From Protoeuglena noctilucae (lineage: Eukaryota): a stretch of DNA of 64,000 nucleotides. This document shows, in pieces, positions 7,001-62,854 of this stretch. The notes beneath the pieces are model-generated. The model was not told the origin of the DNA. It worked only from the letters and a program-made list of their open reading frames with translations, and did no database searches. The stretch is from contig OY253668.1 of the NCBI GenBank assembly GCA_958009085.1, positions 1,984,001 through 2,048,000 on the forward strand, in the 5' to 3' direction. The translations under genes and the position numbers were made by a program. Positions within the stretch are counted from its first letter, which is position 1. Every line of letters begins with the position of its first letter.

Positions 7001-7677
7001 CCGGGAGGGAGCGGGGCCCGAGTGGCCGGTGACCGTGGCGGTGGTGACGAGCGGAGACGGGGGTGCGGGTGCGGGTGCAGGTGCGGGTGTGGGTGGCAGT
7101 GGAGTTGCATGGCGAGAGTTCTCTGCGGACCCCGGCGGCCTCAGCGCTGCGCTGGGAGAGGCGCTGGGGTGGCTGGCGTCCCGCGCGCCGCCGGACCCCC
7201 AGCTCTGGTCTCTGCGGNNNNNNNNNNNNNNNNNNNNNNNNNNNNNNNNNNNNNNNNNNNNNNNNNNNNNNNNNNNNNNNNNNNNNNNNNNNNNNNNNNN
7301 NNNNNNNNNNNNNNNNNNNNNNNNNNNNNNNNNNNNNNNNNNNNNNNNNNNNNNNNNNNNNNNNNNNNNNNNNNNNNNNNNNNNNNNNNNNNNNNNNNNN
7401 NNNNNNNNNNNNNNNNNTCACCAAGCCCGCGATGCAAGAGCGGCGGCGCGGCACGGGGCCTGCGGACGCCTCTTCGCACCGGGGGGACCTGGCCGTCAGC
7501 GTGACGAGGCCATCGAAGGTCCCTGCGACGGGGACCGCGGGGCTGGCACCCCGGGCTTGCCTTGAGGGGGTGGCACCCGGGGCTCGCCTTGAGGCCGTCT
7601 TGCGCCTCGAGCGCGACCGGCGCCGCGAGCACGAGGCGTGGCTGCGGGGCGTGCTGGAGAGCCCCGCGCCCGTGTAG
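1010..7677 (+). CDS. SAC3/GANP-family (TREX-2 scaffold) protein with N-terminal FG-repeat region; multi-exon
   Basis: Exons 1010-1108, 1200-1340 and 1448-~2663 join in frame and the third is FG-rich. SAC3 motifs follow: IVGMCDKMCSDAEVEER, LRTLPALERT, IYNFVWDRFRAI, EQHVRF, PNEAEFRAY, IFVRFFR. The C-terminus is Ala/Arg/Glu-rich. Continuity across the N gap and the stop at 7677 are inferred. Confidence 0.85.
7218..7417. other. Assembly gap (200 N)
   Basis: Run of N inside the 3' part of the SAC3/GANP gene. Confidence 1.
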
Positions 7678-15000: not shown

Positions 15001-18000
15001 ACCATACCTGGGCATAGGGCGTTCGGAGTATCTTGTCCAATGACATGCGCTTGAGCTCCAGCACCTCGTCCTCATACCCAAGCATCTTCTGCAGAGATGG
15101 TATGCGGGGGGCTTATAGTGAAGCGAGGCAGGGGCTGCTGGCAAGGGTTGACGGTTGAGGGTGGCAGGGACTGGTGCCAAGGCAGGGATTGGTGGAATGG
15201 CTTGAGGGTGAGTTGAGGCGGGACTGGTGCCGGGGGCCGGAAGGTGGAGCAGCGGGCAGAGCCGACATGTGAGTTCGCAACTACGCTAGTGTGACTGTGC
15301 ATCATCGTGACTCGCCTGGAGGCACCGGTTGACGTAGAGGAGGTGTCCGTTGACGTCAAACACCATGACCCCCTCCACCTCCCTCTCAGGCGTCATCTCC
15401 ACCTCCAGCAGCTGCCCGTCACCCATGCCGACCTTGCGGGCTGCGAGGGAAAAACACGTGTGATTTAAATGGCGTGCACTCATCCCGATCATTCGCATCG
15501 ACTAACTGATACAACCGGGACAAGGGAATGGCTCATCACATAGCCGCCCCTGCAAGTCATCCCTGCACTCCACCACAGGGCCAGCCACCCCACTGCCACC
15601 CCGCAGCCACACCCCTGCACCAACACCATCCCCGCCCCCTCACCCCGGCAGTGCACGGGAATAATGTCCCGGGAATATTTGTGCCGGAACGCCTCGCTCA
15701 GATCCACCACGGGCTCATCGTCCTCGTCTTTCGCGTCATACTGCCCCGCCACGCCCATCATCTCCACGTCCGTCAGGCCCTCGGGGGTGCTGTCTGCCAT
15801 CGAAAAGAGCTTCTCGTGAGCCTCTTGTAAGAGATCCATCCACCGGTTGCCCGGCTGCCCCACCACCGACATGTCCTTGCCCTGGAAGTCGAGCGTGTTG
15901 TAACCTGGGTGTGATGAAAAAGAGACGAGGGGATGTCAGATTCGCACATGCCGAGAGCTGGGACTGACTGGGTGGGTATCAGTGCTTGGTTTGGTTTGGA
16001 TGCGTGGAGAGGTGCGATCGTGGGCGTCTTGACGGATGCTAGCAAGTCGATGGCTGCTGGCGATGAGCAATGGCTTTCGGCAGAGGGAGAGGTACTAAGC
16101 ACCCAGCAGGACCAGTCACCCACTCTCTCACACGCACCTACATCCCCGATCTCTCTCTCAAGTGACCCACACCAAGTCACCCACTCACCCGTGACGGCAG
16201 TGAACGCCTTGTTCACACATAACACCGCATTGGTCGCATCCACCCACACAACCATCACTCACCCGTGACGGCGGTGAATGCCTTGTTGACGCACAACACC
16301 GAATTGGTCGCATCAACCCACACCAACATGCGCCCCTCGGGTCCCCCCGTCTCATCCTCCTCCAGTGGGTGGATAACACCGATGTAGCTGTTGCCCTCCG
16401 TTCCCTGGTTGAGCTTGGTCACTTTCAGGCTAATGGGGATCACGGTGCGGTCCCGGCGCATCGCAAGCACCTTCGTCGTGTTGCCCACAATGTGGCCCCT
16501 GGGAGGGGGTATGAATGCAGGGGTTGGTCATGCATACAACTTGGGGGTGCGGGGGAGTGGGTCTGTTACAAGCGGGAATGTCAACATCGTTGGTGTGGGA
16601 CGTTGCAAGCGTGGGATACAGCAAGCATGGTAGATAGTAACCACCCAACATAGCGAACACATAACATTGCTGTGTCTCACCTCCCCGTGGCCTTGTAAGC
16701 GCGCAGGTAGGCGTTGTGCTTGGTGCTGAAGGGGGGTGGCATGAGGACGCTGACATTCAAACCCTCGAGCTCCCCCGCACGGTAGTCGAGCATCTGGTTG
16801 AGCACTGCGGGTTGATATATATACAAATTGGGATGTTAACGAGTTATCAACACCATTGGGTTGATAAGAGATGGGGCGGCGTGACCGGGTGGGATGTGAC
16901 GGGCATGGTATTGAGGTGTGGCGGGGGGCACATGGCAGGCACGCAAGGGGAGGTGACCAACATTTACAGGCCTGCTCGCGATGCGCATGCGTGTTATGGC
17001 ATCTTCTCACGTTTGTTGGTCATCTGTATGATGCCCGTCTCTGTGATGCACACGATGCCGTCGTGGCCGTCATCCACGGTCGCGGACAGATCCTCGCCAC
17101 CGTTCTCCACTGCGAATGGGAAGATTGGAACTCAAATGTTCGGCATTACTATATACCAGTCGGCTGCGATGATGCAATCATATTGGCTGTCGTCATGACC
17201 ACCCAGTGGCCTCTCCCTCACCTGCCGCCGCCAGCAGGTGGTCCCTCTTGCGCTCCTCCGCCATGTCCTCGGTCTTATCAGCGAGGTTGAACAGTCGCAG
17301 GGCTTTCCAGGGATTGCAGATGACCTCTTCCACGAACTTGCCATACGACCGGAGCAGCTTGACGTTGGAGGGGTAGCGCTCGAGCATGATGCTGCGAGAG
17401 GGCGTGGGGTGGGGGGAGAGGGGGTGAGCGGAAGTGGGGTGATGGCGGGGGGTGCTGGTGGTGCGTCACGGCGCTAACGTTAGGTTAAATGCTGCTACTC
17501 TGTAACGCTAACCAGTGGTCACGATAAGCGCAGTTAAAACGCTCGCCAGTCGCCACAGCTCCTGCACCCGTGCTCCCCTCACCTCTCATCCACAGCCACA
17601 GCCACACCCACCACACCAGTGCATCTCTCACCGGTACAGCTTCGGCTATACATCCATGCCTCTCACATCCATACCTCCCCACTGCCTTACCTGTACAGCT
17701 TCTGCTCTCACACCCATGCTGCTCTTACACCCATGCCCCCCTCATCTCTCACCAACAGCCACACCCACCGCACCACTGCTTCTCTCACCGGTACAGCTTC
17801 TGCGTGGCCAGCTCCACGATCTGGATCTTCCTCAGCCCCCCCGAGATGGACCGGAAGTTCTTGTCCTTGCGCATCAGCAGCTGCCAGAAATGGTGCGTGA
17901 CCTGGATCGACGCCTGGTGACTCTGCTGCGCCGCGCGGAAGCTCTGCTGGAACTCCATGAAGGACATCAGGTCCATGGCGCCGTCTGCAACGGTGGAAGT

Positions 18001-21000
18001 AGAAGTGTTATTGTATTGTGTGTTATGTGTCACACTCCATGAAGTGTCCTTCATGGACATCAAAACCATGGCGCCGTCTGCAATAGTAAAAATAGATGTG
18101 TTATAGTGTGTCACATGTCACAGTGTCACAGTGCGTGAAGGACATATGGTCCACGGCACCGTCTGCGGGAGTGAGTAGGGGTAAGGGGTGTTATGGGGTG
18201 TCAGGCACGGGTGGAGGAGTGAGGGCGACTCAGTGCATGGTATGAGCCAACCTACTTGCATGACAGGAGAAGCACACCACAATGCATGATATAAAGGACC
18301 TAAGCACGCGCACTTGCTGCAGCAGCCGCCGCTATCACCTCCCCCGCCGTCCCCATCCCCATCCCTCTCCCCGCTCACCCGACCCGTATCCCTGTGTCTG
18401 CACGAAGGCCTTGTGGTCCCTGTCGATCCAGAAGTACATCATGCGAAGGTTGATGTTCATGGGCATCTTGGCAGCGCGAAGAATCTGGGAGAGGGCGCCG
18501 GGGTTGTCGCGGCGCACGCTCCTGGGGAGGAGGAGGGGAGAGGAGAGGGGGTGAGATGGTGTGGCACACGGTGCCCATCGAAGCAGCTCCGATTCATCAA
18601 TGCAGCGCTGCTGTCTGCAGCGCGCATGCCGCGTCTGCAGCGCCGTGCTCCCTGTGTCGGCGCCACGCTCGGTTATAAGCATACCCGAGGCTGACCCTAC
18701 ACGCACGGTCTGCCCAACGACCACGTGTGCCCAGCTCACAACTCGCCTGAGGAAGTTGGCGTGCTGCAGGACCAGCAGCGCATTGTCGGGGAATCGACTC
18801 ATGGCGTACTTGAGCACAGCCTCCGCGGACGCCTGCAGCGACTCGTCGTAATTGCCGAAGCGGTCCTGGATCCTAGCACAGCGGCTGCAGATCTGCGGGG
18901 ATGCGGCGGCGGCGAGGGACGCGTCAAGGAGTCGTGGAGATGCGCTGAAAGAAGCAGCGACTGGAATGTAGACAGGCAGACAGGTGAGCTGGGAGCAAGT
19001 AGCGTGTCGCGATAGCTGCAGAGCAAGAGCTGGGAGCAAGGAGCTAGTCGCGATGGCATGGCCGCGGCTCAGCCCAGCAGGCCAGCACAACAGGCAGTGG
19101 GCAGTGCCTAGCTCCACTCCTCGCCTCTGCTTGGGTCGGGCTCGTGATGGCCCGCCATTTGCCGTCCAGGTCACCCCCGCGCTCCATGCTGGCCAGACGC
19201 ATGCTGGCGTTGCGCGTGGCCGTCTCCCCTCCCATCTTGCTCACGAACTTGCGCCGCTGGTCGGACTGCGGGGGCACCCAAGGGGACAATCACCATGATG
19301 CTAGCTGTGCTGCATCACGCTCACGCTGCTCCTGCCAGTGGGGCAGGCATGCATGCACATGCATGCGACCGTGCAGCATCATGTGAGAACCACCAGGGCG
19401 TCCCAGCACGCTAGCAATGTAGCATGGATGTACATAGATAGATCGCTTTTGTCTCCTCAAAGTCACCTGGATGTTTATGTACAAATGCCCTCGTCTCCTG
19501 AAAGTCACCTGGATGTACATGACGAGGTATCCCAGGACGGCACCCACGACCACCACCGAAGCCCAGAGGATGGGGGCACTGCCGGGAGACAGGCTCTTAG
19601 TGCCAATGGCGATGAGGAGAAGGCCGGTGGCCACCAAGACGGTGTGGATGGCCGCGACTGCGCAGTTCACGTGGCGCCTGGGAGGGGTGGTGGTGGTGGG
19701 GGGACGTGCAGGGGCGTGGGGATGTGCACGGACGGGGCACATGCAGAGGCGAGGCACATGCAGGCGCATGCATGGCACATGCAGGCACAAGCGGGGCCAT
19801 GGTGATGGAATGCTTGATAAAACTCCTCAGTCCAGTCTCACCTGTAGAAGGGCTCCGTGCGCAGCGTGTCATACAGAGCCTTGGACGACAGCACCGCGAC
19901 GAAGATCCCAGCGATGTACGGCTGCTTGCGGAACACGAGGGGCACAACGGCCAGGGCCGAACCCAGGACGGTCCATTTCGTGGCCCAGCGGCTACTGCGG
20001 CGCGGGGAGAGCAACGGGGCTGATGGGCGTGTGGCCACGGCTGGTCTGCGTCGTCACTGGTGAAGGTCGCGTCATCGATGGCTTGTTGCCTTGGCCGGGA
20101 AGCCGTATGCCAACGGTGTGTCCGTGGCCTTCCATGCATTTCTCTCACTTGGGGGTCGCGAGGAGATTTGATGCGAGGATGTTGGGGTCAAAGTCGGCGA
20201 GGCTGTTGGCGAGGGCGAGGGCGATGAGCAGCGGCAGGGTGGCCAGCGCGACGACGGAGAGGACGGTGCCGTGACCTGCGGAGCGACGGCGCAAACGGCG
20301 TCCCGTCCGGCCATGTCTGCGGCGGATCTCTTACGCACGTGCTACCCCAATGCAGCATTGGAGTGAGAGCGCGTGCGGCAACCTATCTACGGCGCAGTCT
20401 GAGGCGGCTATCTGCACGCGTGTTCGCGCAGCGCATCACCTGAGTAACAGAGCTGATCAGGGAACACCTTGTTGTAGGCCTGGCGGTGCTGGATGTGCGC
20501 GTTGATGACGTCGCAGGACACCGCACTGCGGGGGCGGCGCCACCTCCGCGTAAGCGTCGCGATGGAGGCGATGGAGCGCACTTTCTGCTATATCTCAAGC
20601 AAACGCTTACCTGGACGCGAGCGCGACGATCGGCAGGAAGAAGAGCTCGATAACAAGGGCCCTGCGGCGATTGCGTGCTGCCGCGCGGTCACCACGACGC
20701 GGCGACATGGCAGCAACATGCACGGACACGTTATGGTACGCAAGCCGCTGACCTGAGCAGCCCCGCGACGAAGATCACGGGTCCCCATGGCTGCGACTGC
20801 TTGGCGAACGTGTAGCCGATGTAGCAGACGACAGCGGTGAGGAGGCCGACCAGGCCCAGGGCAGCGAAGAGCAGGTAACCGAACGTACTGCGGAGGCGAG
20901 CAAGGTGGCGGAAATTGATCGTGCAGCCGCGAGGGAGCGCGACAAGAAGCAATTGCATAGGCTTCAGGGCTCCTCACGAGTAGCCGATCCTCTGCAGGAC

Positions 21001-21686: not shown

Positions 21687-21918
21687 GTTGGGGTCAATGC
21701 GCCAACCCCTGGCGTCGCGTCATCCATTCGCTGGCGCATGCGAGCGATTCATTCGATCCCAACGACACCGCGCAGTCTCCCGGCCCGCGAACCCCGCAGG
21801 CGCCGAGGCGGGGTTCGCGGGCCGGGAGACTGCGCGGTGTCGTTGGGATCGAATGAATCGCTCGCACGCGCCAGCGAATGGATGACGCGACGCCAGGGGT
21901 TGGCGCATTGACCCCAAC
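21687..21918. repeat. Long inverted repeat: 111-bp arms (21687-21797, 21808-21918), 10-nt spacer, one mismatch
   Basis: GTTGGGGTCAATGCGCCAACCCC...AACCCCGC aggcgccgag GCGGGGTT...GGGGTTGGCGCATTGACCCCAAC. Base-by-base comparison shows a single mismatch (left CGCATGCG vs right-arm reverse complement CGCGTGCG). Confidence 0.98.
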
Positions 21919-33795: not shown

Positions 33796-36700
33796 TCATT
33801 TCTTCCCCGCATACAGCTGCCGGAATATCTTGTGTCGCTTGGCGGGTGCCCTGACTGGCGCCGTCTGCGCCTGACGCTTGGCGCCAGAAACGGCGGCGTC
33901 GGCATCCCTGGCATATTCGGCGTAATGCATGTCGTCGGCGCCTGTCAGGGTGGCCAGGGATCCCACCACGCGGCGGACACCCTGGGGGGGTGGGGGTGGG
34001 TGAGGGTGAGGGTGGCAGTGGGGGTGGCAGTGAGCGTGTTGCGATGCAGAAGGGTGCGGGGTGAGGCGATACGCAGAGTGTCTCTCATCATCACACCCAC
34101 AACACCGCACACCCTCACTCACCCCCGCTCCCTGCTTGGTCGCCTTGGCCCCATCGCCCACGATCTCCTCCCTCAGCACATCCTGCGAGACAGTCAGAAG
34201 GAAAATGAGTGTATTACATCTAGTAACCATCTGTGTTACTAGTCATGGTCATTTTCACGATAGTTATTGCAAGCAAGGCGACCAGAGTGCCAGCACCCCC
34301 CTCTCGCATTTACCCATATCCATATATTCACACCCACATTCATCTCCCCTCACCTCCAGCAGCTTCTGCCTGTTCTCTGGCTTGGCCATCCGCGTCTGCT
34401 GCAGCTTGGCGCGGTACGTGGGGTGGCGCCTGAGAGGGAGTGACAGAGAGGGGGAATGTGGTTTGCTGTAAATGGATTACTTGTACATTGAATAGCATAG
34501 TAGTATTACTTGTACATTGAATAGCATAGTAGTACTATCTTCATCATCCATAGCGCCTTCGCCTGCGCTGGTCGTCGACACGACCCTCACTAATCGCACC
34601 CCATGCACATCGCCGCTCCCATATGTTTTTCACAAATGATACGACTAATAATCACCTGAAATAGTCCTCGTAGTCGAGCACCCTATAGCTGTACCCCTGA
34701 TCGACCAGGAACCGCTGCCGCTTGACGCTGAAGTACATCTCACGCGTGTCACGCGAAACGAGCGAATAGAACACAGAGTCCACGCCCATCACGCGAGAGA
34801 CCTGGGGATATATTGGGGATATATTGGGGATACATAGTAGTATTGTGGGAATTATGGTTTTAATATAATATAATATAATATAATATAATATAATATAATA
34901 TAATATAATATAATATAATATAATATAATCCACTCGCCTTCCCCGCCGCTTTCCGCCTCAAGATGCGCCCCAGTCGCTGTGCTTCCTGCCTCCTGGATGC
35001 CCCGTGGGACGCCACTTGGATGATCACATTGGCGTCGGGGATGTCGATCGAATCGTCGCCCACCTTGGAAAGCAACTATGGGGGTGGGGGGATGGTGTGG
35101 GGTTAGGGTGAGATGTGAGTGAGATGTGAGTGAGCTGAGACGTGACTGTTAGTCGAGATGCAGTGCTAATCGCCACCCCCACTTTTCCCCTACTCCTCAC
35201 CAGCGTCTTGATCTTGCCCGTCTTGAATGCCTCCAGTATCTGCATGCGGTCTGCAAGTGATGGGAAAGGGAATGACAGTTTCAGCACATGGTACATAGAT
35301 CGTTTACTATATATCGACTGACCCATCGCATCGCATGTCATCACGCCCGCACACAACCAACGCCTCACCCCAACCCCCCCCACCCCCCTATCAACAATCA
35401 CCTGCCTGCGACGTCTTGCCGTAAATGCAGTTGCGGTTGAACACCTTCTGCATGTGCAGCAGCGCGAAGATGTTGTCCGAGAACACGATCGTGCGGTGGT
35501 TGAGCTCCTCGTGGGTCCTCATCAAAAATTCCACCATCATGTACTTGACGGGGTTGCACACCCACAGGCGCTGGCGGAGCGAGGGGGAGTCGGACTTCAG
35601 GTACTCGCTGCGGGCGGGGGTGAAGTGTGGGGGTATTGGAAATTAATTACAGTAATAATTGTAGTGATGATTATTAGTGAAAGTAAAAGTGACAGTGACA
35701 GTAATGATGGTGATAGTGATAGTATAGTAGTAATGATATAAGAAATAATAATAGTAATAGTAATAGTAACAGTGGTAGTGATAGTGATAGTAATAGTATT
35801 ACTATTATCAAGTAATGAAAACAGCCTCACCGGAAGAACGGCGCCGTCATGGGGCACCATATCTCCAGGCACTCCACCGTGGCGATGTGGCCCTCTTTGG
35901 CCAAGTCACTCCAGTTGGCCTGGGGATGGAAAGGGGGTGCAGCAGTTGCTGTAATATTAGCAGATAGCGAATAGCAGATAGCGTACGTTGTATGTAGGAT
36001 GGTATATGATAACCACCCGCCATTGCCCAATCGCACACCACCACCACCACCACCCACCCCCCTCCATATCCCCCCTCACCTCGTACAGCTTTGGCCCGAT
36101 CAGGAAGTGGAGGTCATTGATGCGGCTGTCCTCCCGGACGAGCGTGGCGGTCAGCCCCAGCTTGCAGTGGCTCTTGATGATGCCAAAAGACTTGCGGAAG
36201 TCGTCGGCAGGGGCCACGTGCACCTCATCCAATATCAGCAGACCCCACTCCATCGACCGGATCATCTGGGAGGGTGAGTACGGTGATGTATATGGTATGG
36301 TATGGCACATACTGAGAGATGGGCAGTGATGGTGCTCTCTAATACATGAGATAGTGGCCTATGGTGACTTGTGAGTAACAATGATAAACCCCACTTTCTC
36401 TGAATCTCGCCTGCATGACCCTCTCGCTCTCCTCGCTCTTCTTCCCCTCGCCCCCCGTCATCATCGTGTAGGTGGTGATCTGGGAGAGACGGGGGGGGGG
36501 GGGGGGGGATGAGAATGAGTGAGCGAGAAAGGTACATACTGGCACTGGCAATCAACAGTGTTATCGTCCATCGCGAAGCAGCACCCAAATCACCCACCCA
36601 TCACATATAGATCTATTACTTAAACATCCCTCACCAGCACCCCGCACGCCCCCGGGAAGAACCTCTTGTCTACATCACATACATCCATCACTCATACATC

Positions 36701-39700
36701 TACTCATATATCAAACATATACTACTCATATATCAAAAAAAATCCCTCACCAGCACCCCGCATGCTCCCGGGAAGAACCTCTTGTCCTCGGCCGTGAATT
36801 TGGCGACGTGGAATTCTGGCAGCGTCGACCACTTCAGAAACTCGCCCGCCCACTGCTCCACCGCAAGCGTGTTCTGGGTGTGATGGGAGATGGGGGGGGA
36901 GACTAGGGTGGTGGGAACACGATGGTCGATCCATCACTCACTCACCGACTCATCCACTCACACTCGCTCACTCACTCATCCCCTCACTCACTCACTAACT
37001 CACTCAATTACTCACTCACCTTGCACAGCACCATCACGCTCTTCTTGATCCTGGTGGCCGCCGCGATCCCAGTCAGTGTCTTCCCCGCCCCGCAAGGCAG
37101 CACCACGATGCCCGAGCGAGCACGACCATTGCCAAACATCTTCGACAGGCACTTCTCCTGGTAGGGGCGCAGGCGGACCTGGGGGGGACAGCCGGCAATA
37201 CTTGTCCTTTTACTAATAACTATTAACCTGATAATGATAACGGGTTGAGTATAATGGACCGCACGCCTATCAACTACCCCCCAACCCAACCCCTAACAAC
37301 AAACCCCCCCCCACCAACACACACGATAACGCCACCCCAACCCCCACCTGCGGCCTGAGGTCCATCTGCAGCGTGGGGTTGACCCTGTCGTTTTTGAAAT
37401 CGTATTCCTCCAGCATGGGGAAATTCAAACCATCCGGCAGACACCTCTGCTTGACCCGCTCCACTTGCGACGCGGCAATCTCAAACGCCCACACCACCTC
37501 CTCGCCCTCCTGTTTGAAAGAAGGGGAGATGCGGGTTTATATGATATATATAGTATTACTACATATAGATATCGATGAGAGTAGTAGGAGTGTCTATAAA
37601 AAGAGAGCGAAGCAAACATCGCATGCCTCGCCTGTATGTCGTATCCCTCGTACTGACGCTGCTGCTCCTGAGTGGCAGACGCATTGGCCACGCCGGCACC
37701 TGCGATGGGGGAACAACGATCACTTTTGGTCCATTATCACGCAACTGGCGATCGACTGTTCATCGACTGCCGATGCGACTACCCAGCGCGCGCTCTTTCG
37801 TCCATCGCCCAGCCACGCATGTTGTACAGCTCTGCGATCTATGCCTATCAACAGAACCTCACCCCCACCGCTGCCACCCCCATCACCCCCAACGCCACGT
37901 CACCCCCGCCCCCCCCCCCCCCCCCCCATCACCCACATCACAACCCCCCACCCCACTCACCCCTCGCCCCCATCGCCTCCTCCCCCTCCTCATCGCTTCC
38001 CCCCCTGCCCCCTTCAACCGCATCCACCGCCTCTTTGGTCAGATCAATGGCAGCGTGCTCCCTCAACGCCCTTCCGGACTCTATCACTCGCTTCTCCCCC
38101 GCCATCGCAGATTGAATGACGGAGTCCCTGAGAGGAGATAGGGGGGAAGGGGGGTGAATGGGGTGAGAGTGAGAGGGAAAGGGGTGGGGTATGGGTGGGG
38201 TGGGGGTGTTGGGGTGGTGTGGGGTTGCGGGTGAAAGTGAGTGAGAGTGGGTAAGCGAAAGTGAAAGTGGGGTGTGAGTGAGTAGGAGCGGTGGTTATGA
38301 CTTTTAACGATCGCAGCAACAGCGACAGCGTCGCATCCCACCCCACTCATCACAAACTCTCACCACCAACCAACACCCCCCCTCCCCTGCTCTCACCAAT
38401 AGCAATCACCACAACCACACCCCCTCCCCGTCAATCACCTGGCCAGCCTGTCCAGCACCGCCTTGTCGGGCGACTCCACCCAGAATCGGTTGTGCTTGAG
38501 CACCACCTTCACCTTGCCGAAGTTGACGGTCGAATCGTGGATGAAGCGGGAGAGCTCGGGGGGGACGCCCACCTGGGAAGATGGGGGGGGGTGAGGGGGG
38601 GGCGAGGAGTGAGAGTGAGGGGGTGGTGCGGTGAGAGGGAGGGGATGGTGGGGTTGCGATGGTCGGATGGGGTGCAACAAGCGGGTGAGACGTGCGACTG
38701 CTATGTCTCTACAGCACCACAACACAAAGCAACAGCCCCATCTATCCCACTCCCACTCGCCTTGCTCATGCGTTGCAGCACCACCCAGTGCAACTGCCCA
38801 TCTATCACTCTAATCCAATGCACTACTCGCCTTGCTCATGCGCTGCAGCACTTCCACGATGGTCTGCGTGGTCAGCCCCACCGACACGGCCGCGTACAGC
38901 GAGTGGGGGGTGAGGCGGTACTCATGGATGCTGTCGGGGCGGGTGAGGGGCTCGGCGATGGCGATGAGGAAATCTGAGAGAGGGGACGAGGGGGAGTGAG
39001 TGGGTGATGGGGATGAGGGGAGTGGGGGGGGTGAGGGGAGGAGAGGGTGAAAGGTTATGGCCATTGCTACTCCTCACCCCCACCGCCATCGCCACCCACC
39101 GCCTATCACCTATCCCAATCGCTACCCACCACCCATAGGCATTGCAACCCACCCCCCACCACTACCCCATCTCTCACCGTATGCTTGTCGGTAGATGGGC
39201 GACTGAGACTCGAGGATTACTCTACCAATTGCCCATCTCTCACCACTAACCCACCATTCATCATTACCCCCTCTCTCACTACCCCCATCTCTCACCGTAC
39301 GCCTGCCTATAGATGGGCGACTGCGATTCCAGGATCACCCTCGCGTCCGGCAGCACCCACATGGGGCGGTTTGGGTGGTCGGGCTTCAAATCCAGATGGG
39401 AATAATCCACGCAGCCGTGGCCCTCCTCATCGTCCTCGTCCTGAGGGGAAGGGGGGTGGGAGTTGATGCGAGCATAAGATGTAATTGACTGAGAGAGTTG
39501 TTGACTGTGTTGGTAATAGGGTCCAACCACCAATCCATTACGTTGTTGACGCACAAGATGCAATTCTTTGGCCATCAAACCATCACCACCGTCACCATTA
39601 CTCCCTCACCTCCGTGTCCACCCCATCCTCGTTGTCCCGAAAGAACCTCCCCCCGCCCCCCGCCTTGCCACCACCGCCCCTCGCACCACCACCCTTCCCC

Positions 39701-47805: not shown

Positions 47806-50800
47806 TCACGCGGCGGGGAAGAACATTTTGGTGGCGATGCGGGTGAGGAAGGAGAGGGGCCAGGAGGCGGCGGCGATGGCGATGTTGATGCCCCATTCGG
47901 TCTTGCTGCGGGGGCGGGAGGAGATGATTGCGTCGCGGGGCGGTTGGCGGGTGACATAGGGCGGGAGACACGTGAGGGTGCGTCGCATGGCATGGCCACG
48001 CATGACCCATGACGATCGCCCATATGCATGCACCCCAATGCATGGCCCATGAATGCATGGCCCATATGCATGGCCCATCCCAAGACTGCCTGTCCCCTCC
48101 CATCGCAACTGCGAACTCACTTGAGTGGCGTGATGACGAAGAAGGTCCCGACGGGCGTGAGCATGAAGATGAGCTGCAGCCCCGTGGTGACGATCATGAC
48201 GCCCAGGAAGATGTGGTTGGTGAAGATGCCGTCAAAGACGTTGATCTCGTCGTCAATCTTGCGCGCGTTCACCTCGTTGAAGAGCTGCAGGAAGATGAAG
48301 GTGTTGAAGACCATCGTGTTGACGTGGGACTCCTGTGCGGTCTGCCACTCCGTGAACACCAGCTCCGTCATCTGACGGTTGTGCGCGTAGTTGCCGCCGG
48401 GAAGAGCACCGTCGGGCAGGCGCAGGCACCCGGAGGGGTGCACGGGCCACCGGTAGGAGCGGCCGGTGTACTCGCGGTCAATCAGCAGCGCGCTCTTGAG
48501 CTCCCCCCGCGAGTAGGAGGCGGCGGTGAGGTAAGAGGAGAGGGTCTGGTCCTGCAGCACGCTCGACGTCACGCGGTCGTCCAGCTGCGGAGGGGTGAGG
48601 GGTTGAGGGAGTGGGTGAGGGGGTTGGGGGGGTGTCAGATGATGGAGCGACGGGGATTTGTGACGGAGAGAGGGTGAGTTGCCGACAGGCAGATGGTCGC
48701 AGCCACCGTTGCTCATGCATCGACGCAGCGCACCCCCCCACACACAGCACTCTGCCATCACACACACTTGCAGTGACCACCACCCCCGCACCCCCACTAC
48801 CCCCCCACCCCATCGCCCCCTCACCTGGCTGGCGGTGAGGGTGCAGTCCTTGGCCCTGTAGTAGTCGTTGATCTTGGGGGGCACAAAGATCAAAAGCATG
48901 AGGGCCACGAACTGGTAGATGCCCTGGATGAAGATGTGCTTCCACATCTTTCGGCTGATCAGCGCGCTCTTGCCGTAGGGCTTGCGGTTGAGCAGCTCCT
49001 CGGTGGGCAGCTCGGTGGCCAGCGCGAGCGCCGCCATCGAGTCCATGACCAGGTTCACCCACAGCAGCTGGATGACGTTGAGGGGCGTGCCCTTCTGGGC
49101 GATGGCGGCGGAGAAGGCGATGAGCAGCGCCACGCAGTTGATGGTGAGCTGGAACTGGAGGAACTTGCGGATGGCGTCGAAGATGTTGCGGCCCCACATG
49201 ACGGCCTTGACGATCGAGTTGAAGTTGTCGTCGGTGATGACGATGTCCGAAGCCGCCTTGGCCACCATCGTCCCCGCGATGCCCATCGCCAGCCCCACCG
49301 ACGCCTCCTTCAGAGCGGGCGCGTCGTTCGTCCCGTCGCCCGTCACGGCCACGATGTCCCCGCGCCTCTCCATCAGGAACTTGACCAGGCGTTTCTTGTC
49401 TTTGGGTTTCGATCGCGCCAGCACCTGCAGCCGGTCGATAACCTTGTCCAGCTCCTCGTCGGGCATCTCCCGGAACTCGTCCCCGTCCATCACCACCCCG
49501 TCTCCAAACAGGATCCCGCACTCGCGAGCGATGTACGTGGCCGTCAGCTGGTTGTCCCCCGTCACCATGCGCACCGTGATGCCCGCGCGGCGGCACTGGG
49601 CCACGGCGTGGGGGACCTCCTGGGGGGATGGGAGAGGGGGGGGAGGGGGGTTGGGGGTGTGGGGTGGAGGTAGCTGTATGGGGTGTGGGTGTGCAAGCGG
49701 TTGCGTGCAAGCAGGTGCGCGCCACCCAAGTCATGAACTGCGCTTGCAGAACATACAGCCCCCGCCCCGTGCAACCCCCCCCTCTGCTCGCCTTCCTGAC
49801 CGGGTCCTTGATCCCCACCACCGCGCACAGCACGGGGTCCCTCAGGGGCGGCTCCTCAAAGTCGTCGTCTTTCAGCGTCCCCGGCAGGTCGCAATAGGTC
49901 ATGGCCAGGCAGCGCAGGCCGCGGGACGCCATCTCCTTCGCCACCTCCGTCGCTTCCTTCACCAGATCGCCCGACATCTGGGAGGGGGTGGGGGGTGGGT
50001 GAGTGGGTCGGTGTCACACACACACACACACACACACACCGAGCTTTCGACTGAGTCAGCACAGCACAAGTCATGTCACCACTGCCGCACTCGCGCCACT
50101 GCTGGCCCTTACCAACCAATTTACCCAGCCTCACACCACATTACACTGCACCGTCACACTGCACCCCCTCTTCCGCACCGCAACCCCCACCGTCGCATCG
50201 CACACCACCCCCGACCCACCCACCCCCCCACCTAAGCCTCCAACTCACCGCCACGACCTTCCCCTCCAGCGTGGTGGCGTGCGTGCACTCCTCGATGACC
50301 CAGTCCCACGCGCCCTTGGTGAACATGCGGTAGCCCTGCCCGTGCCGGAACACGGCGTGCGACATCTTGGTCGCCGAGCTGAAGATGTACTTGCGGTGCA
50401 ATGGGTGTTTCTGGCGCATCTGCCGGTAGTCGACTCCCCACTGGTCGGCCAGCAGCAGGAAGGCCTGCTCGGTCGCGTTGCCCCCCGCAAACACGGGCTT
50501 CTTCGTCACTTCGTCAATGGTCTTGAAGCACTCGGAGTTGAGCGTGGCGTTTAAGTAGATGAGCTCCGACTGGTCCTTGCGCAGGGCGTCCATGCGGGGG
50601 GTCTGCTTGTAGTGCTTGCCAAAGAAGTAGCCCTGGGGGGGGAGGGGGGGGGGGGGGGGGGGGGGGTGTGGGTGGGTGAGGGTCGGGGTGGCAGTGGGGG
50701 TGGCAGTCGTTCATCTATGTCACTTCTTATCGTCATAACATCCAATCGTATTCATCCTCATCCACCACCACCAGCTCTCACCTCCACGATGGTCATCTGG

Positions 50801-53800
50801 TTCTCTGTCAGCGTCTCCCTCTAATCATCATTTATCATTCACATCCACCACTCATCTCACCTCGACAATCGTCATCTGGTTCTCCGTCAGCGTCCCCGTC
50901 TTGTCGGAGCAGATGGCCATGGCGCCGCCCATGGTCTCGCAGGACGCCAGCACGCGCACGAAGATCTTGTCGGTGAGCATCTTGCGCATCGAGTACGCGA
51001 GCGCGATCGTCACCGCCTGCGGGGGAGGAGAGGGGATTGGGTGAGGGGTGGGGAGCGTGGGGCTGGCAGGGATGGGTTTGGACTGGCACGCTGTTGAGAG
51101 ATCGGTCGGTCGGTCGTGTTTCCAACAATACACAGGCAGCCTCAATGTGCACACAATGCAGTCACGCTGCGGGCCTGATCAGTGCACCTGCTCCACCCCT
51201 GCTACCTCACCCCCACCCCATACCCCTAACCACCCTCACCAGGGGCAGCCCCTCGGGCACGGCCACGACGACGATGGTGACGGCGAAGAGGAAGTAGTTG
51301 AGGACGTCGGTGCCGTGCTGGGCGTAGGCGCCATTGCGGTACAGCACCAGCCACTCAATCGTCAGCACCACGAAGCACACCGCGCCCACCGCCATGCCCA
51401 GCTTGCCGATCGCCGCGGCAAGGTCCGCCAGCTTGATCTGGAGCTCTGCGGGGGAAGGGGAGAGGCGACGGGGGTGATGTTATTGCAAGCGCGTGTATGT
51501 GCGACCGTCTGCCGCCATTCACCCAGCAATCTCCACCCCCCGTTCGCTTCCCTCGCTTGCTCGAACTCAAAGCGACACCGTTGTTCACCCCAGTCCCACC
51601 CTCATGCGCACATGTACCACCCTTTCACATCCCCCACCCAACCCACCCCACCCCCCCACCCCACCCCCCCACAACCCCACCCCACCCCCACCCTCTCACC
51701 CGTGTCCGGCGCCTCCCCCATGACATCCTCGAGGGTCTTGCCGTAGAAGGACTGCTCCCCCACAGCCGTCACCACCATAGTCCCCGACCCCTCGACAATG
51801 TACGACCCCGAAATGAGGTAGGGCTCCTGCTCCCCCTTCATGATGGGCTCGGACTCTCCGGTGACCGACGACTCGTTGGCCTTCAGTTTGAATCCCTGGA
51901 CGAAGAAGCCGTCCGCCACCACGGCGTTGCCCGCCTCGAGCTTGAGCACATCCCCGACGACCACGTCCACGTTCTTGATCACCTCCTCCTTCCCTGCAGT
52001 TGCGTGGGAGAGAGGAAGAGGGTGGGGATAAGAGGGGCGAGGCACAGAAGGCATGGCATGAGGTGCACCCTTGGGAGGGCATCAAGAATAACGCCATGGG
52101 CGGGGTGGGGTGGGTGGGGTTGGCATTTCGTAGCAATCATACACAATCATGCACAGCTAGTGTATGAAGAGCCTTCCTTTGTCACCCCAGCCCCTCCAGC
52201 CACGCCCCGTCCCGCCCACCACCCCTCTATCACACACCCACCACCTCTCACCTCCCCGCATGACCGTCACGTCGAACACCTCCCGCTCCGAGTTGAGCTT
52301 CCGGAACTGCTTGTCCTTCGAGTAGTCGTTCCCCGCGCCCACCGTCGACACCACCAGCACCGCCACCCAGATCGCCACCCCCTCCACCCAGCCCCCCTGC
52401 GCCCGCTCCTCCGGGATCGTCACCCCCAGCACCGTCGACACCAGCGCCGCCAGGCACAGCAGGACCAGCATCGGGTCCTGCAACACCTCGAACAGCAGGC
52501 CGAAGAACGTCTTGGGAGGCACCTCCTTGTACCGATTGGGGCCGAAGTCCTCGCGGCGTATCCCCACCGAATCCATCGACAGACCCACCGATAGGTCCTC
52601 CACCCCCAGCTTCTGGCCCAGGCCCGCGACGCCTCCCAGCTCCTGCAAACGAGCGAGCGGGGGCGCTGGGCGCGAGCAACGCCCCCCCTCCTGTTTCTCC
52701 CAATTGGCGTACCGACCCTCGGCGCACCGACCACTGGCCCGGCCCCGATTCGGCGCGGAAGCCCCACCTTGAGGCGCTGGTGCATCTTCTGCTTCATGTT
52801 AGCCGCCTCCGCCTGCTCCTCCTGACTCAGCGGCTGCGCCGCGGCCCCGCCGTTCTCCTCGCCCTCGCCCCCCATGTGGGCCTTCTTGTGGCCCGTGCCC
52901 CCGGCCTTGACGGCGATCTGCGCACGCGGAGGCGGCAGAGCGATGCGTCAGGCGAGCGCCGGAGCGCGGCGGGGTCCGTCGCGGGGAGGGACGGCCGCGC
53001 GGGGCCATTTTGGGCGGCCGGGGGAGGCGCAGGCACCCGCGCGGGCGCTGGGAGGAGCGCGAGGCGGCTGCGGGACATCGCGCGCGCCAAGAGGAAACCG
53101 GAAGCCGCGCATCACTCCGAGAACGCGGCGGGAGCGACGCGGCGGGGCGCGGGGGCACGAGGTCAACGCGGCGAGCTGAGCCCGGCGAGGTCAGCGGAGC
53201 CAGGTCGTTTCCGGCCATGAGGGATCCGCGATAGCAGCCTCGCTTGGTATGAAACCGGGAGGAAACGCCACCCTCCGGTTTCGAGCCCGCCAGGCGCCGG
53301 GGTGGGGGCCCCAGTGCTCGGCACATGTTTGGACGCGGGCAGCGCGCGAACAGTGGCGGGAAGGGCAGAGAAGGCAGCGCCTGCTCACTCAAACGCCGAC
53401 AACAAAGGGAGAGGCGGCGGCCATGGCCTGCGAGGGACCATCGCGAGCCCCGGGCGAGTCGGCCCTGAAAGGGCCGGGACCAGACCCGCCCGGGGATCTC
53501 TGGACCCCGTAGTGGGCGCGACGGATGTAATATAACGGATTTCGCCGGGACAAAGGGTCTCCCAGGGCCTGCCGAGCCCGGAAGAACGCCCCCCCGACCA
53601 TCTCCCCGGCAACGCCGGCCCTGGCCGCCATGCCGAGCGCGGAACGCGATCAAAGGCAATGACAGCAGCTTCGAAACGCGCGCCGGCCCCGCGACGGCCA
53701 AGCATGCGGACATGTCACCCGAACTGCGCCCACCAGTCCCGAGCCATCACTCACGTCGTTCAGCTCATCGAGCTCCTCCCGCGTAATGCCGTAATGGCCC

Positions 53801-53832
53801 TGCAGGGCTGGCCGAGCCTCCCCCTCCGCCAT
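47806..53832 (-). CDS. P-type IIB (PMCA/ACA-like) Ca2+-transporting ATPase; multi-exon
   Basis: [44 protein letters not shown] (phosphorylated Asp), [40 protein letters not shown] and [11 protein letters not shown]. Confidence 0.95.
50015..50039. repeat. (CA)n microsatellite in a Ca2+-ATPase intron
   Basis: About 12 CA units. Confidence 0.9.
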
Positions 53833-57944: not shown

Positions 57945-60900
57945 TTAGTGCCCTGCCCCACCTTGGCTTCCTTCATTCCGAGGACCTTGAGGAGGAAGGC
58001 GTACTCGAGGGCAGTCTCGCGGAGCTTGTCGAACCGGCCACTCTTGCTGCGAGCAGGACGGGGTTGTGGCGTGCAAACACTATGCCTCTACCTCAGTCTT
58101 ACGACTGACTACTGACTGCTACAGTATTACAAACTGTTACACTGCTACAATCGCCCGTGTTGTACCTCAGCCCATGCTATCAGAGAGCCTTCCCTGTCGC
58201 TGTGTCGCTGTCTCTGGTCTCACTGACTGTCAGTCACCTGAAGTGCCCCGCCCCCATGTCCACCTTCATCAGCAGCAGGTTGTCCCCCTGCTTGGCGGCC
58301 CTCAGCTTGGCGCAGAGCTTGGCGGGCTCCCAGTACGCCACGCGGGGGTCCCAGAGACCGGCCGTGATGAGGATGTGGGGGTAGGCCTGGGGAGTGACTG
58401 CGGGAGAGGGGTGGGGGGATGAGGATGTGATGGGTGACGAGGGTGTGGGGGTAGACCTGGGGAGTGACTGCGATGGGATGGGTGGGGGGATGAGGATGTG
58501 GGGGTAGAGGTGAATATGGGGCTGCATCTCCCTCACACTGTTGTCCACAGGCGAGTGAGTCTTGATCAACCAACACCACCCCTCATGTCCCATCTCCCAA
58601 CTCACCATTATCCACCGGCGAGTAGCTCTTCATCAGTTGGTAGTACTCCTCGTCCTTTAAGGGGTTGCCCCACTCGTCCCATTCGATCTCCGTAAGTGGA
58701 ATACTGGGATCCATCATGGTCGTCAGCACGTCCACGAATGGCACGCCCATGATCACAGCACGAAACAGGTCGGGGCGCATGTTGACGGTGGCACCCATGG
58801 TCAGCCCCCCAGCCGAGCGGCCGCTGATGCAGAGGGTGGAGGGGGAGGTGAGGCCGGAGGAGACGAGGTGCTCGGCGCAGGCGATCTGGGGAGGGAAGGG
58901 GGGATGTAATAGAGATGGGACGTGGTGATGGGTGGGGGTGCGACCGGGGCGCAGTGTGATGGCAGACAGCAAGGTGAGATGTGCGGTTTCACTCAATCAC
59001 TCTCATCCATTCCCTCACCAGGTCCGTGAACGTGTTGGTCTTCTTTTTGAACTTCCCGTCCTCATACCACCGCCTCCCCATCTCCCCACCGCCCCTCACG
59101 TGCGCGATGCCAAATGACACCCCCCGATCCAGCAGCGACAGCAGATTCGACTGGAAGTAGGCGTCGTTGGGGATCTCGTAAGCGCCATATGCGTCCAGCA
59201 GCATCGGGGCTGGCTGGGGCGCGTCTTTGCGACGGACGATGGAGATGGGGACGCGCGTGTTATCGGGGGCCGTGGCCCAGAGGCGAGAGGTCTCGTAGTG
59301 AGAGGAGTCGAAAGGGCCCCTGGGGGTGGGGGGATGTAGGGGAGTGGTGGGGGCTTGTGGGGGTGTAGGGGTAAGACAGGTGGGAGAGGTGGTGAGGGTG
59401 GTGGTGGGTTGCAAGTGGGGTGCAAGTGGGGAAAAGGGGGATGTGGAGAGTGTGTGGGTGTGAGGAAATGCGTGGGTAAGAGAGGTGGTCGCTTCAACAA
59501 ACATCATGCTCATTTGCGACCACTCACTTGACCGGCGTGACCTTCTTGACCACCTGCCTCATGCTGCCCATGTCGAGATCAATGGCAGAGGCGGGCGTGG
59601 TGAGGGACGTGTAGGCCAGCCGCAGCACGGGGCTGTCCCAGTCGCCCTTGGCCCCCGTCGTGAGCTCATAGGATGGTTCTCGAAATTCGGCGCGTCGGCC
59701 CTGGTGCAGGGACCGGACGGGCTGGCCGGGGGGCGGGAGGTCGAACACGGTGGCGGACTGGGGGGGGGGGGGGGGGGGGGGTTGGGGGGAGGTGGTGGGG
59801 GTGAGGGGGGGGTGCGAGAGTGTGAGAGGGAGAGAGGTGGTGAGGGTGGTGGTGAGGGGGAGTGCGATAGTGACGGTGGGAGAGGAGAGACGGGTGTGAA
59901 TTGTGTCCCCGAGCAGTGCCCTCATTTACAGCCCACTCCATGCTCCCATGCGCATGGCTGTCGATGCTTAGCCACAGATGCTATCACTGCCCCTCCCTCA
60001 CCTGCAGCCCGTCGATGCGTTCCATGGCCACCATGTGCGCCTTGGCCACCACCACCTCCTCCAGCTTCACATCCGCGCGGTGGGGCAGCAGCACAGTCGT
60101 GGATGTCGGGTCACTCAGGGGGGCCACCAGCAGCTCCGAGTTGAACTGAGGTCGACAGGTGGCAAGGGGGAATGAGATGTGCAGTATGCGGTGAATTCAG
60201 TGTTGAAGTGTTGAGTAAATGCATGGCGTAGATCCGCACCCACACTGCTACCCCCACCCACACCCATACCCCCACCCACACCCCCACTGCTACCCCCACC
60301 CCCACCCACATCCATACCCACACTGCTACCTACACTGCTACCCCCACTCACACACCCATCCAACACCCCCACCCCCACTAACACCCCCCCCTCCCCACCC
60401 CCTCACCCTCTCGTCATCCCGAATAGTGATGAAGAGGTCCTGGTCGCGGAACGCCACCCCATACTCCACCCCGTACTTCCTGGGCAGCACCGTTCGGAAC
60501 TCCCCCGTGGGATTGTCTGCTTTTAGTATCCTCTCCTCGCTCGTCACGGCTGAGCCCGTGTGGATGACGACGTGGGAGCCGCACCAGGAGCGACTCACGC
60601 CCACGTAGAACTGGCCGTCCGTCTCGTGGTACACGCACACGTCCTGGAGAGAGTGGATGGAGAGAGATTGAGACTAGCGAAAGGAAGGTGCAATGGGCGT
60701 GCACGGCCAGTCTCTGGTGCAGCTACCACCTACCATCTATCGTCATCACTGTGCGTCGCCCTCACCCACACACTATCAAGCGCAACTCCCCCCCCCCAGT
60801 CCCCCTCCCCTCGCCTGTTCCGGTTCCGTCCCCACCACGTGCCTCCAGACCTTCTCCGGCCGGTCGAGCTTGTCCTTGGTGACGTAGAACAGCGTGCGGT

Positions 60901-62854
60901 TGTCAGACGCCCACGCCAGCGACCGCCCCTCCGTGCCCTCGATGGGACGCGCCAGCACCTGCCGATTGGTTGCCAGGTCCTTCACGTGCAAGGCGTATCT
61001 CTCGTTGCCCACCGTGTCGACCGCGTATGCCAGCAGGCGGTGGTCGGGGCTCACTACCGCGCGGCCCACCATGAAGAAGGAGTGGCCGCGGCTCTCCTGA
61101 GAGAGAGGAGGGAGGGGGCGGGTGGTGTTATTGGTACTGGGAATGAAAAATCAAGGCTCTCATGGGGGAGAGAGAGAGAGGGAGTGGGTGGATGGGTATC
61201 GCGGCTCTCCTGAGAGAGAGGGAGGGGGTGAGGGGGTGAGTGAGTGGTAATGGTGGTGAGAACGAACGACAACAGCTCATTTGGGGGGGGGGTGAGAGAG
61301 GGGTTGGGTGGTAATGTTGGTGAGAAGGAGTGGCCGCGGCTGTCCTGAGAGAAAAAGGGGAGTGCGTGGGTGTTGTTCAGAAGAATAGTATCACCCATAA
61401 TCTTATCTAAATACCACTAACGACTCCAATAATGCATCCCCATCCCTCGCCTCACTTCAGCCCATCACCCCATCACCCATCTCCATCTCTTGCCTTGTTC
61501 TCGTCCAGCATGACTTGCTCATCCATGCTCTCATCCATCACGTCATCCACCGACGGACAGCGGTGGATCTGGGACGCGGGGACCTTGCGGCGGCAGTGGC
61601 TGCGGTACTGGAGGCCTGAGAGTGATGAGGTGGGTGAGATGAGGAGATGAGGGAAGGGAAGGGTGATAGGGGAGTGAGAGAGAGTGGGGATGAGAGGGGC
61701 AGTTGCTGCGGTACTGGAGGCCTGCGAGGGTGGGTGATGTGGGTGACATGGGGGGTGTGAGTGAGTGGGGATGAGATAAAGTGGTTGGGTGCACACGATT
61801 AACGCCAACATAGTGTTGATAGAGAGAGAGACCCCAGCAGAGCATCGTTGCCATGCATCCTTGCATCGTTGCATCATGGTCCACACCCATGCTCGCTCGC
61901 CTTCGTAGGTGCGCGAGTAGTAGAGGTACTGACCCTTGCGCACCGGCGCAGAGATGTCGGCTTCCTGAGAGGGGCAGGCGTGGGGGGTGGCAGTCGCACG
62001 TTGCAGCTGGCATGCCTGCCAACACCATGCTGCGCTGATATCAGAGACAGCCCCACACGTGCCTGCTTGCCTGCTCGCCACCACCGTGCTGTGATAGTTA
62101 TCAAAGACAGTCCACACACGCATGCCATGCCACTGTCCAACCCCGCCCATCTGCTCACCTGCAGCCGCCCCCTCATCTCCTGAAACAGCGACTCTTGCAG
62201 GTCCACGGTGTCCGCCATCATCGCCTTGGTGTAGGCATTCTGGGGGCCAAGCGGGGAGAGAGTGGGGCATCAGGACACCGCAGCACGTCGACGGTACAAA
62301 GGATAGCTAAAGGAGAGCATGCTGTGTCGTGCTCCAGCACTTGAGACCATCGCCCCATCGGCAACACCCATCCCATACCTCTGCATCCAGGTACTGGATG
62401 ACGTCCGGCCGCTTGCGCTCGTCGTCCCTGCATAAGAGCAAAGCGAGACTGGTTACACAGCATGCGCCACACGCCTCTCCACCACCACCGCACAAGCTGC
62501 GACGACAGCTGCGGCGCACAAAGCGACTTAAACAAGCACCAGATGATCTCTCCTCGACTGCACAGCCATCCGCACAGTCACCTTAGCCAGTAATACTCGT
62601 CAATGCGCTCGTCCCCCGTCAGCTCAGACTTGAGGACGTGGGGGCGGCGATCAGCGACGGGTGCGGGGACCATGGCGGCACGCGCGCGCTCCACCTCCGC
62701 ATCCGATGCGCCCGATGCAACCTGGGCGAGGGAAAGATAAGGAGACGCGGGTCCGGCAAGCTGCTCGCGCTGTCATTAAGCAAACAAAGCTGCAGCAACC
62801 CACCAGCGTGACGAGGGCGCGCTTCTCCGCGTCCCGGACGCCTGGGCGCGGCAT
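57945..62854 (-). CDS. Oligopeptidase B (protease II, family S9A); multi-exon
   Basis: [36 protein letters not shown], catalytic Ser motif [18 protein letters not shown] (Asp) and MGAGHF (His). The start is uncertain: ATG 62854 or 62673. Confidence 0.93.
60238..60352. repeat. Degenerate intronic minisatellite (CACTGCTACCCCCACCC-like units)
   Basis: Four copies of cactgctacc separated by cccaca/cccata tracts in an oligopeptidase B intron. Confidence 0.7.

Follow-up and report, generated by a model that had tools for sequence, protein, structure and literature searches.

In the 64,000-nucleotide window of the Protoeuglena noctilucae genome analysed here (positions 1,984,001 to 2,048,000 of contig OY253668.1, our contig C1, in an assembly of 26.3 Mb and 27 contigs), the sixth intron of a PMCA-type Ca2+-ATPase gene carries near its start a second version of the preceding exon's end, followed by a second splice donor. 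This copy is real and unused, and it is a member of a large, partly silent-biased class of junction copies. Its near-identical, silently differing exon half and its old, diverged intron half together resemble a second allele of the same junction. On balance we lean towards reading the Ca2+-ATPase stretch as the scar of a recombination in which two diverged alleles of one gene took part, and many of the copies elsewhere look like scraps of diverged versions of the same gene left by imperfect recombination. The gene and the parts of the junction are as follows.

47806..53832, reverse strand: PMCA-type Ca2+-ATPase gene, 11 exons, intact open frame of 1067 amino acids; first exon uncertain (hand model versus hidden Markov model, HMM)
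50861..51016, reverse strand: exon 6, its end read as 15 residues; the RNA contig of run X8 covers the exon with 0 other letters
50861..50893, reverse strand: exon half of unit 1, the exon end present in mRNA (RNA contig)
50823..50860, reverse strand: intron half of unit 1, 38 bases from the start of the intron, rich in G and T, with the GT donor that is in use (score 7.3)
50815..50822, reverse strand: joint of 8 bases with a 6/8 match to exon 50901-50894, probably an imperfect microhomology at which exon sequence was rejoined to the intron half
50782..50814, reverse strand: exon half of unit 2 (the intronic copy), 29/33 bases alike with 4 silent differences; no acceptor before it
50740..50781, reverse strand: intron half of unit 2, with a GT donor that is not used (score 8.3) and an intron start 67% alike to its counterpart in unit 1
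50633..50739, reverse strand: remainder of intron 6, a C-rich 3' half with an AG acceptor; the whole intron is 228 bases
50249..50632, reverse strand: exon 7 (gene model, RNA contig)

The duplicated exon end lies directly after the DKTG motif. As an earlier, sequence-only reading had claimed, 50893-50861 and 50814-50782 (offset 79) encode the same 11-residue peptide, are both followed by GTGAGA, and differ at 4 of 33 bases, all of them silent (ACG/ACA, ACG/ACC, ATT/ATC and GTC/GTG). Four silent differences out of four have a probability of 0.003 if decay is confined to the copy, and of 0.021 if silent-site drift in the exon is allowed as well. The silent count depends on the boundary, and under the 41-base bounds of an automatic extension (50901-50861 versus 50822-50782) P rises to 0.18; the Ca2+-ATPase locus by itself is therefore weak evidence for a silent bias. 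We read the 8 extra upstream bases as joint and not as copy, which is admittedly a choice; the codon preceding the extended copy is TAG.

Of 24 listed runs, we aligned 4 to 50330-51400. In field DNA run X5, a sample from another study, a single contig crosses 50705-51400 with 0 other letters and 0 gaps. Both units therefore stand in tandem in an independent sample, and the absence from raw genomic reads that the sequence-only reading had considered is not what X5 shows. Copy number was compared in this one field sample, which has two units as in the window. In RNA run X8, one 2812-base contig of the gene aligns in three pieces (51400-51239, 51015-50860 and 50628-50330) found at record places 471-632, 633-788 and 792-1090. 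Its exon piece agrees letter for letter with the first exon end, and across 50690-50833 the RNA depth is 0. The record places fit a joint from 50861 to 50632 in one step, the upstream joint being the only one listed directly. In this one RNA contig, only the most upstream donor is used and the intronic copy is spliced out; the unused second donor outscores the first. Contigs drop rare forms, so donor 50781 may still see low use.

Copies of this kind are widespread in the genome. Exons, introns and frames were called with a self-trained HMM, which recovered 9/10 introns of our hand model of the Ca2+-ATPase, with the mismatch at the first, and which was checked against RNA at two junctions of that gene. 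Its donor consensus is CAG followed by GTGAG and its acceptor consensus is CCGCAG. The search covered intron-side copies, and in an 864 kb sample it found them at 43 donors and 22 acceptors among 1564 predicted introns; 60 evenly spaced loci gave 28 copies at 1055 predicted introns, which extrapolates to about 1200 genome-wide. Control anchors placed 60 bases inside exons gave a copy in 0/1206 cases, putting junction-anchored copies far above chance, and double-donor patterns matched at 235, 90, 42 and 72 places versus 12, 1, 2 and 2 in reversed controls, some of the matches being simple repeats. Units mostly number two, are 30-140 bases long, and occur on donor and acceptor sides in 2-3% of introns. 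The window holds 15 cases, among them three in the gene for an XPB helicase with 13 differences in total, all silent, and a longer one with some replacements.

39178..39341, reverse strand: XPB helicase, exon end 39341-39296 and copy 39223-39178, 10/10 differences silent including AGG/CGA, P = 1.8e-4
38761..38851, reverse strand: XPB, exon end and copy, 1 silent difference
36635..36786, reverse strand: XPB, exon end and copy, 2 silent differences
16189..16329, reverse strand: exon end of 67 bases and its copy, differing at 6 silent and 3 replacement positions (2 of the latter at the outer edge)

The copies go with long introns. They occur in 0/507 introns shorter than 100 bases and in 44/273 of at least 200 bases, and at loci with copies the other introns are also longer (162 versus 114 bases). 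Decayed donors show a weak excess in long introns (16 versus 7.0 in the longest class, 18 versus 14.5 in the next), and 7/339 internal donor motifs share at least 7 bases with their own exon end versus 0 in controls. Decayed acceptors in long introns show no excess, and we looked for a lower GC content at third codon positions beside long introns and did not find it.

The strongest alternative, which we hold to be unlikely yet a serious contender, is ordinary tandem self-duplication across the splice site, by slippage or by sister-chromatid end-joining. The copy would then decay randomly and the exon would drift at its silent sites, all the more quickly where CpG turnover and GC-biased conversion act; turnover in the G-rich intron halves would far outpace that in the exon copy. 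Our null for this process, a copy that is junk from birth beside an exon drifting at silent sites, gives a silent rate about 2 times the replacement rate. Another 56 junctions, drawn as a second set from 60 loci that the double-donor pattern selected without regard to codons, gave 68/122 silent differences, a silent-to-replacement rate factor of 3.4 (2.4-4.85), and among its copies with at least 3 differences 5/19 were all silent versus 0.76 expected. Outside the window as a whole, 7/38 copies were all silent against 1.5 expected, which speaks against self-duplication, as does the XPB case with its 10/10. A two-class fit places about 40% of copies at a factor of 10 and the others near 1.1. By hand calculation, membership of the Ca2+-ATPase copy in the silent class ranges from likely to very nearly certain with the bounds chosen.

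A paired CpG test, which requires no outgroup, points the same way. In 121 cases trimmed by three bases at each end, CpG present in the exon and lost in the copy accounts for 33 silent-side and 8 replacement-side changes (P = 1e-4). This speaks against junk decay because such decay would strike both sides alike; CpG gains in the exon, as an alternative, would by our own estimate need about ten times the neutral rate. C/G swaps are likewise about five times as frequent at four-fold sites (23/388) as at zero-fold sites (10/845). A silent excess over neutral decay, as alleles would have, is thus present for the class and weak for the Ca2+-ATPase locus alone. The silent-only divergence that the sequence-only reading proposed holds in part: a silent-dominated class exists beyond the window, but it is not a rule of the whole, as 140/280 differences at 121 junctions are replacements. 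These replacements look neutral (mean BLOSUM62 of -0.47 versus -0.60 expected, 2 stops versus 1.6, n = 34) and are slightly richer near the outer edge. The copies are therefore not under protein constraint now, and we rejected present-day protein-level constraint on the same neutral level of replacements and stops. The silent bias speaks less for present use than for inheritance from a time when the copy worked as an exon in a different haplotype, and it carries a warning: silent-only differences in an exon copy are no proof of translation.

The intron halves, too, speak against plain duplication, which copies exon end and intron start together, so that both should age alike. This is not seen. 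Gapped identity of the intron halves has a median of 60% (59 cases with at least 18 intron bases), and in the 12 cases with identical exon halves they are 39-71% alike. Only 2/57 reach 80% ungapped, and 3/52 gapped in the second set; in both sets the divergence of intron halves shows no correlation with that of the exons. High-complexity halves have diverged like simple ones (median 0.45 versus 0.50), which again does not suit self-duplication. The halves are homologous nonetheless: in 16/57 cases versus 4.1 expected, no neighbouring intron matches as well as the own partner, and at the Ca2+-ATPase the partner beats all 21 neighbouring introns. The intron halves are thus homologous yet older than the duplication. 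Arrays of three or four copies mostly have a different intron start after each copy.

We simulated plain self-duplication with substitutions, indels and slippage, passing the products through the same detector in 11 settings of what are simple models. Every setting failed on two measures: 26-65% of simulated cases kept an intron-half identity of at least 80% (observed 2/37), and 14-46% had hidden exon homology beyond the edge (observed 0/37). Another intron as the source of the intron halves was rejected, since blastn against the 864 kb sample gave same-intron or simple-repeat matches only and none for the PMCA. Microhomology at the outer edge gave no convincing signature (G 0.42 versus 0.39 in controls). 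Elsewhere, two tandem paralogs (L069:8959-10000 with L070:1-51, versus L070:3932-5019) share up to about 180 identical exon bases beside unalignable introns; gene conversion there seems confined to exons, and the pair is too old for calibrating intron against exon change.

The allelic origin that we prefer would account for both halves together. Two haplotypes would pair in the conserved exon, and copying from one of them would overrun the donor into an intron no longer alignable with the partner's. The strand would then return to the partner's exon, 33-41 bases upstream of the donor, by way of a brief and imperfect match. Unequal crossover and a one-sided invasion closed by end-joining are both candidate pathways and would leave an identical product: exon end and intron start of allele B, presumably the foreign one, followed by exon end and whole intron of allele A. 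The insertion would survive because the first donor removes it by splicing, so that it is tolerated, and the reciprocal deletion would be lost. The differences would be silent because each exon end was functional coding DNA until the joining; afterwards the copy would decay at random. Repeated events of this sort may lengthen introns. Genes for sex are present, as shown by family matches in the genome to Mnd1, two Spo11/TopoVIA and HAP2.

Several observations weigh against this origin, and some of them favour self-duplication. The first 50 non-window cases gave 45/116 silent differences, a factor of 1.7 (1.2-2.45) that fits plain duplication and its factor of 2, and all 106 non-window cases together (113/238 silent) gave 2.45 (1.90-3.10), a range still touching 2. 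The neutral replacement differences are as self-duplication has them, a few perfect self-repeats exist (L022, L049), internal repeats occur in 63/508 long introns without a junction copy, and in rice inserted sequence is frequently a tandem duplication produced by break repair, as reviewed in PMC7407515. At the Ca2+-ATPase, 4/4 at P 0.02 is one result among many candidates, and the 41-base extension adds 2 replacement differences (ACG/AGG, GGG/GAG) to the 4 silent ones. In the XPB case with 10/10 silent differences, 9/15 codons are changed, which is beyond usual allelic difference. Non-CpG transitions from G/C to A/T show no excess at silent sites (24/600 silent versus 20/618). The direction of change is lopsided by context, with GAA in the exon and GAG in the copy 8 to 1 and CpG mostly lost in the copy (GCG/GCA 10 to 3), which counts against a symmetric two-allele model because such a model does not predict it; one donor lineage with a different mutation spectrum could be responsible. 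The simplicity of the simulated models belongs among these caveats.

The search for the other allele counts on the same side. In X5 a single haplotype is seen, and it is that of the window; X13 and X14, picked because they might hold diverged relatives, yielded no more than short, distant matches to conserved P-type ATPase motifs; and a metagenome scan for relatives returned 6 loci at 47-52%. No parental single-copy allele was found in the 4 runs aligned or in the metagenome scan. Runs X18-X24, which carry the same species label, share almost no words with the window and were counted as no evidence. Among the 120 matches listed in a protein search, none fell between the window's own protein and 69%. 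That figure belongs to Pedinophyceae sp. YPF-701, the top named relative in a comparison of one long exon in which chlorophytes made up most further matches, so that a green alga is the most likely source; Pfam matches of the protein are Cation_ATPase_C and Hydrolase, and DNA of the organism is present in marine metagenomes. A paralog as source of the copy was rejected for this locus, where a degenerate motif search of the whole genome matched the two units only. The other P-type ATPases of the genome are 65, 56 and 42% alike in protein.

Own-chromosome, error-prone templated end-joining, with the exon half copied faithfully and the intron half assembled from nearby G-rich sequence, strikes us as quite improbable. 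It would account for related but scrambled intron halves beside identical exon halves, some halves share exact pieces of 14-21 bases, and templated insertions by alternative end-joining are known (PMC7407515). It yields no silent bias, however, and leaves the second set, the CpG test and the XPB case unexplained, while the PMCA halves differ by scattered point changes and not by exact patches.

Less probable again is that selection on protein or splicing maintains a copy in use, be it a micro-exon, an alternative end of the exon or a regulated poison donor. The shared peptide, the better-scoring second donor and the retention of GT or GC by 37/43 unused donors would suit it, and contigs would lose rare forms. 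The sequence-only reading had looked to mRNA for use of donor 50781 and for the ACA/ACC/ATC/GTG alleles. Neither is found in the X8 contigs, from which rare forms are lost; the RNA keeps the first exon end, and the copy is absent. No usable acceptor precedes the copy: the candidates, at -3.75 and -4.66, score lower than the 1st percentile among predicted acceptors, and their context lies 46 bases from donor 1 without a C-rich tract. Donor 50781, if used, would lead to a stop two codons into the intron. These results give no support to the idea that the copy is read. Lengths divisible by three are not favoured among the units (11/43), and a poison donor would not constrain the copy's codons, where replacements and stops stand at the neutral level. 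A mutually exclusive or cassette exon arising from exon duplication was rejected on similar grounds (no acceptor of its own, no copy in the spliced RNA of X8, frame not kept). Intron gain by tandem duplication was also rejected, there being no new intron between the copies and 50861 being joined to 50632 in one step by the record places of the RNA contig. Finally, an assembly artefact that wrote two haplotypes of one sample in tandem is scarcely credible: it would yield silent-only exon differences and unlike introns as observed, but the X5 contig from another study spans both units with 0 differences at the Ca2+-ATPase locus, and X1 and X2 hold 1.00 of 465 sampled words (possibly as the assembly's own source).

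At the Ca2+-ATPase locus the copy is without effect on the pump. If the allelic reading is true, the class would show one way in which sex between diverged haplotypes lengthens introns. One assembly would then let past diversity, allelic or hybrid, be read off roughly a thousand paired exon samples, and splice-site choice in a green alga could be tested on many natural pairs of equal donors or acceptors. It is tempting to go further, though here we are tentative and would not be surprised to be wrong. The introns may amount to an archive of roughly a thousand pieces of other haplotypes, in some instances as distant as a separate species, which exon-anchored recombination captured when it overran splice junctions. 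With survival on the intron side only, the process would then work as a one-way ratchet; the patches of long introns, G-rich in the 5' half and C-rich in the 3' half, would be its product, and population diversity and hybridisation history would both be on record in one haploid genome.

Some further observations concern the introns and the window. Introns of at least 170 bases occur in gene-sized patches, and the division into G-rich 5' and C-rich 3' halves is stronger with length. GC donors are about 19% of predicted donors in a genome sample of 1183 predicted introns, are followed by the same GAG, and include that of PMCA intron 49791-49620. Acceptor-side copies in the window lie at 61075-61344, 61592-61721, 58364-58467 and 17958-18162; in the class, the unused upstream AG of acceptor-side copies is intact in 15/22, yet skipped, and silent differences number 36/93 on the acceptor side versus 104/187 on the donor side. 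A pattern search found a long array of GTGAG, the 5-base donor word, at about 311866-312048 of another contig (G000:C8). The window also has a 200-base assembly gap at 7218-7417 and, outside predicted genes, a palindrome of 234 bases at 21687-21918 that is 96.6% self-complementary.

In a searchable body of full texts that lacks most subscription papers, we came across no description of junction copies of allelic origin spread over a whole genome. In one-sided invasion, sequence is copied from a homologous template at one end of a break, after which that end is joined without the help of homology; a templated insertion results. Such an outcome, an aborted synthesis-dependent strand annealing finished by end-joining, was reportedly described in plants by Puchta in 1998. 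That work is said to have used induced breaks and transgene templates, whereas here the process would be read from natural scars and an allelic template.

Three further published systems bear a likeness. In the hypervariable fungus Schizophyllum commune, diverged genotypes cross over mainly within exons (PMC4209137); as we propose here, recombination between diverged haplotypes keeps to conserved exon sequence. Unlike in our case, PMC4209137 reports clean crossovers, its main text being without the words 'duplication' or 'insertion', and hypervariability of the alga is our assumption. The gain of an intron in potato RdRp (PMC4974935) likewise involved a tandem duplication that crossed a splice junction and inherited its signals; there a new intron and exon arose, whereas here the copy stays within one intron, grown by 79 bases. 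The third is intron 7 of human F7, where a 37-bp variable number tandem repeat carries silent 5' pseudo-sites and the most upstream donor is used (PMC1557585). As at the Ca2+-ATPase, the F7 unit spans the exon-intron boundary and its downstream donors are intact but silent. F7 is, however, a minisatellite of near-identical units at one locus, whereas the Ca2+-ATPase units are not near-identical throughout (intron halves 67% alike), and the class as a whole has mostly two units, near-identical exon halves, intron halves about 60% alike, a genome-wide spread over both splice sides and a silent bias. Junction-spanning repeats with silent donors are thus already known from F7, and what we describe is a variant with deeply differing intron halves, found genome-wide.

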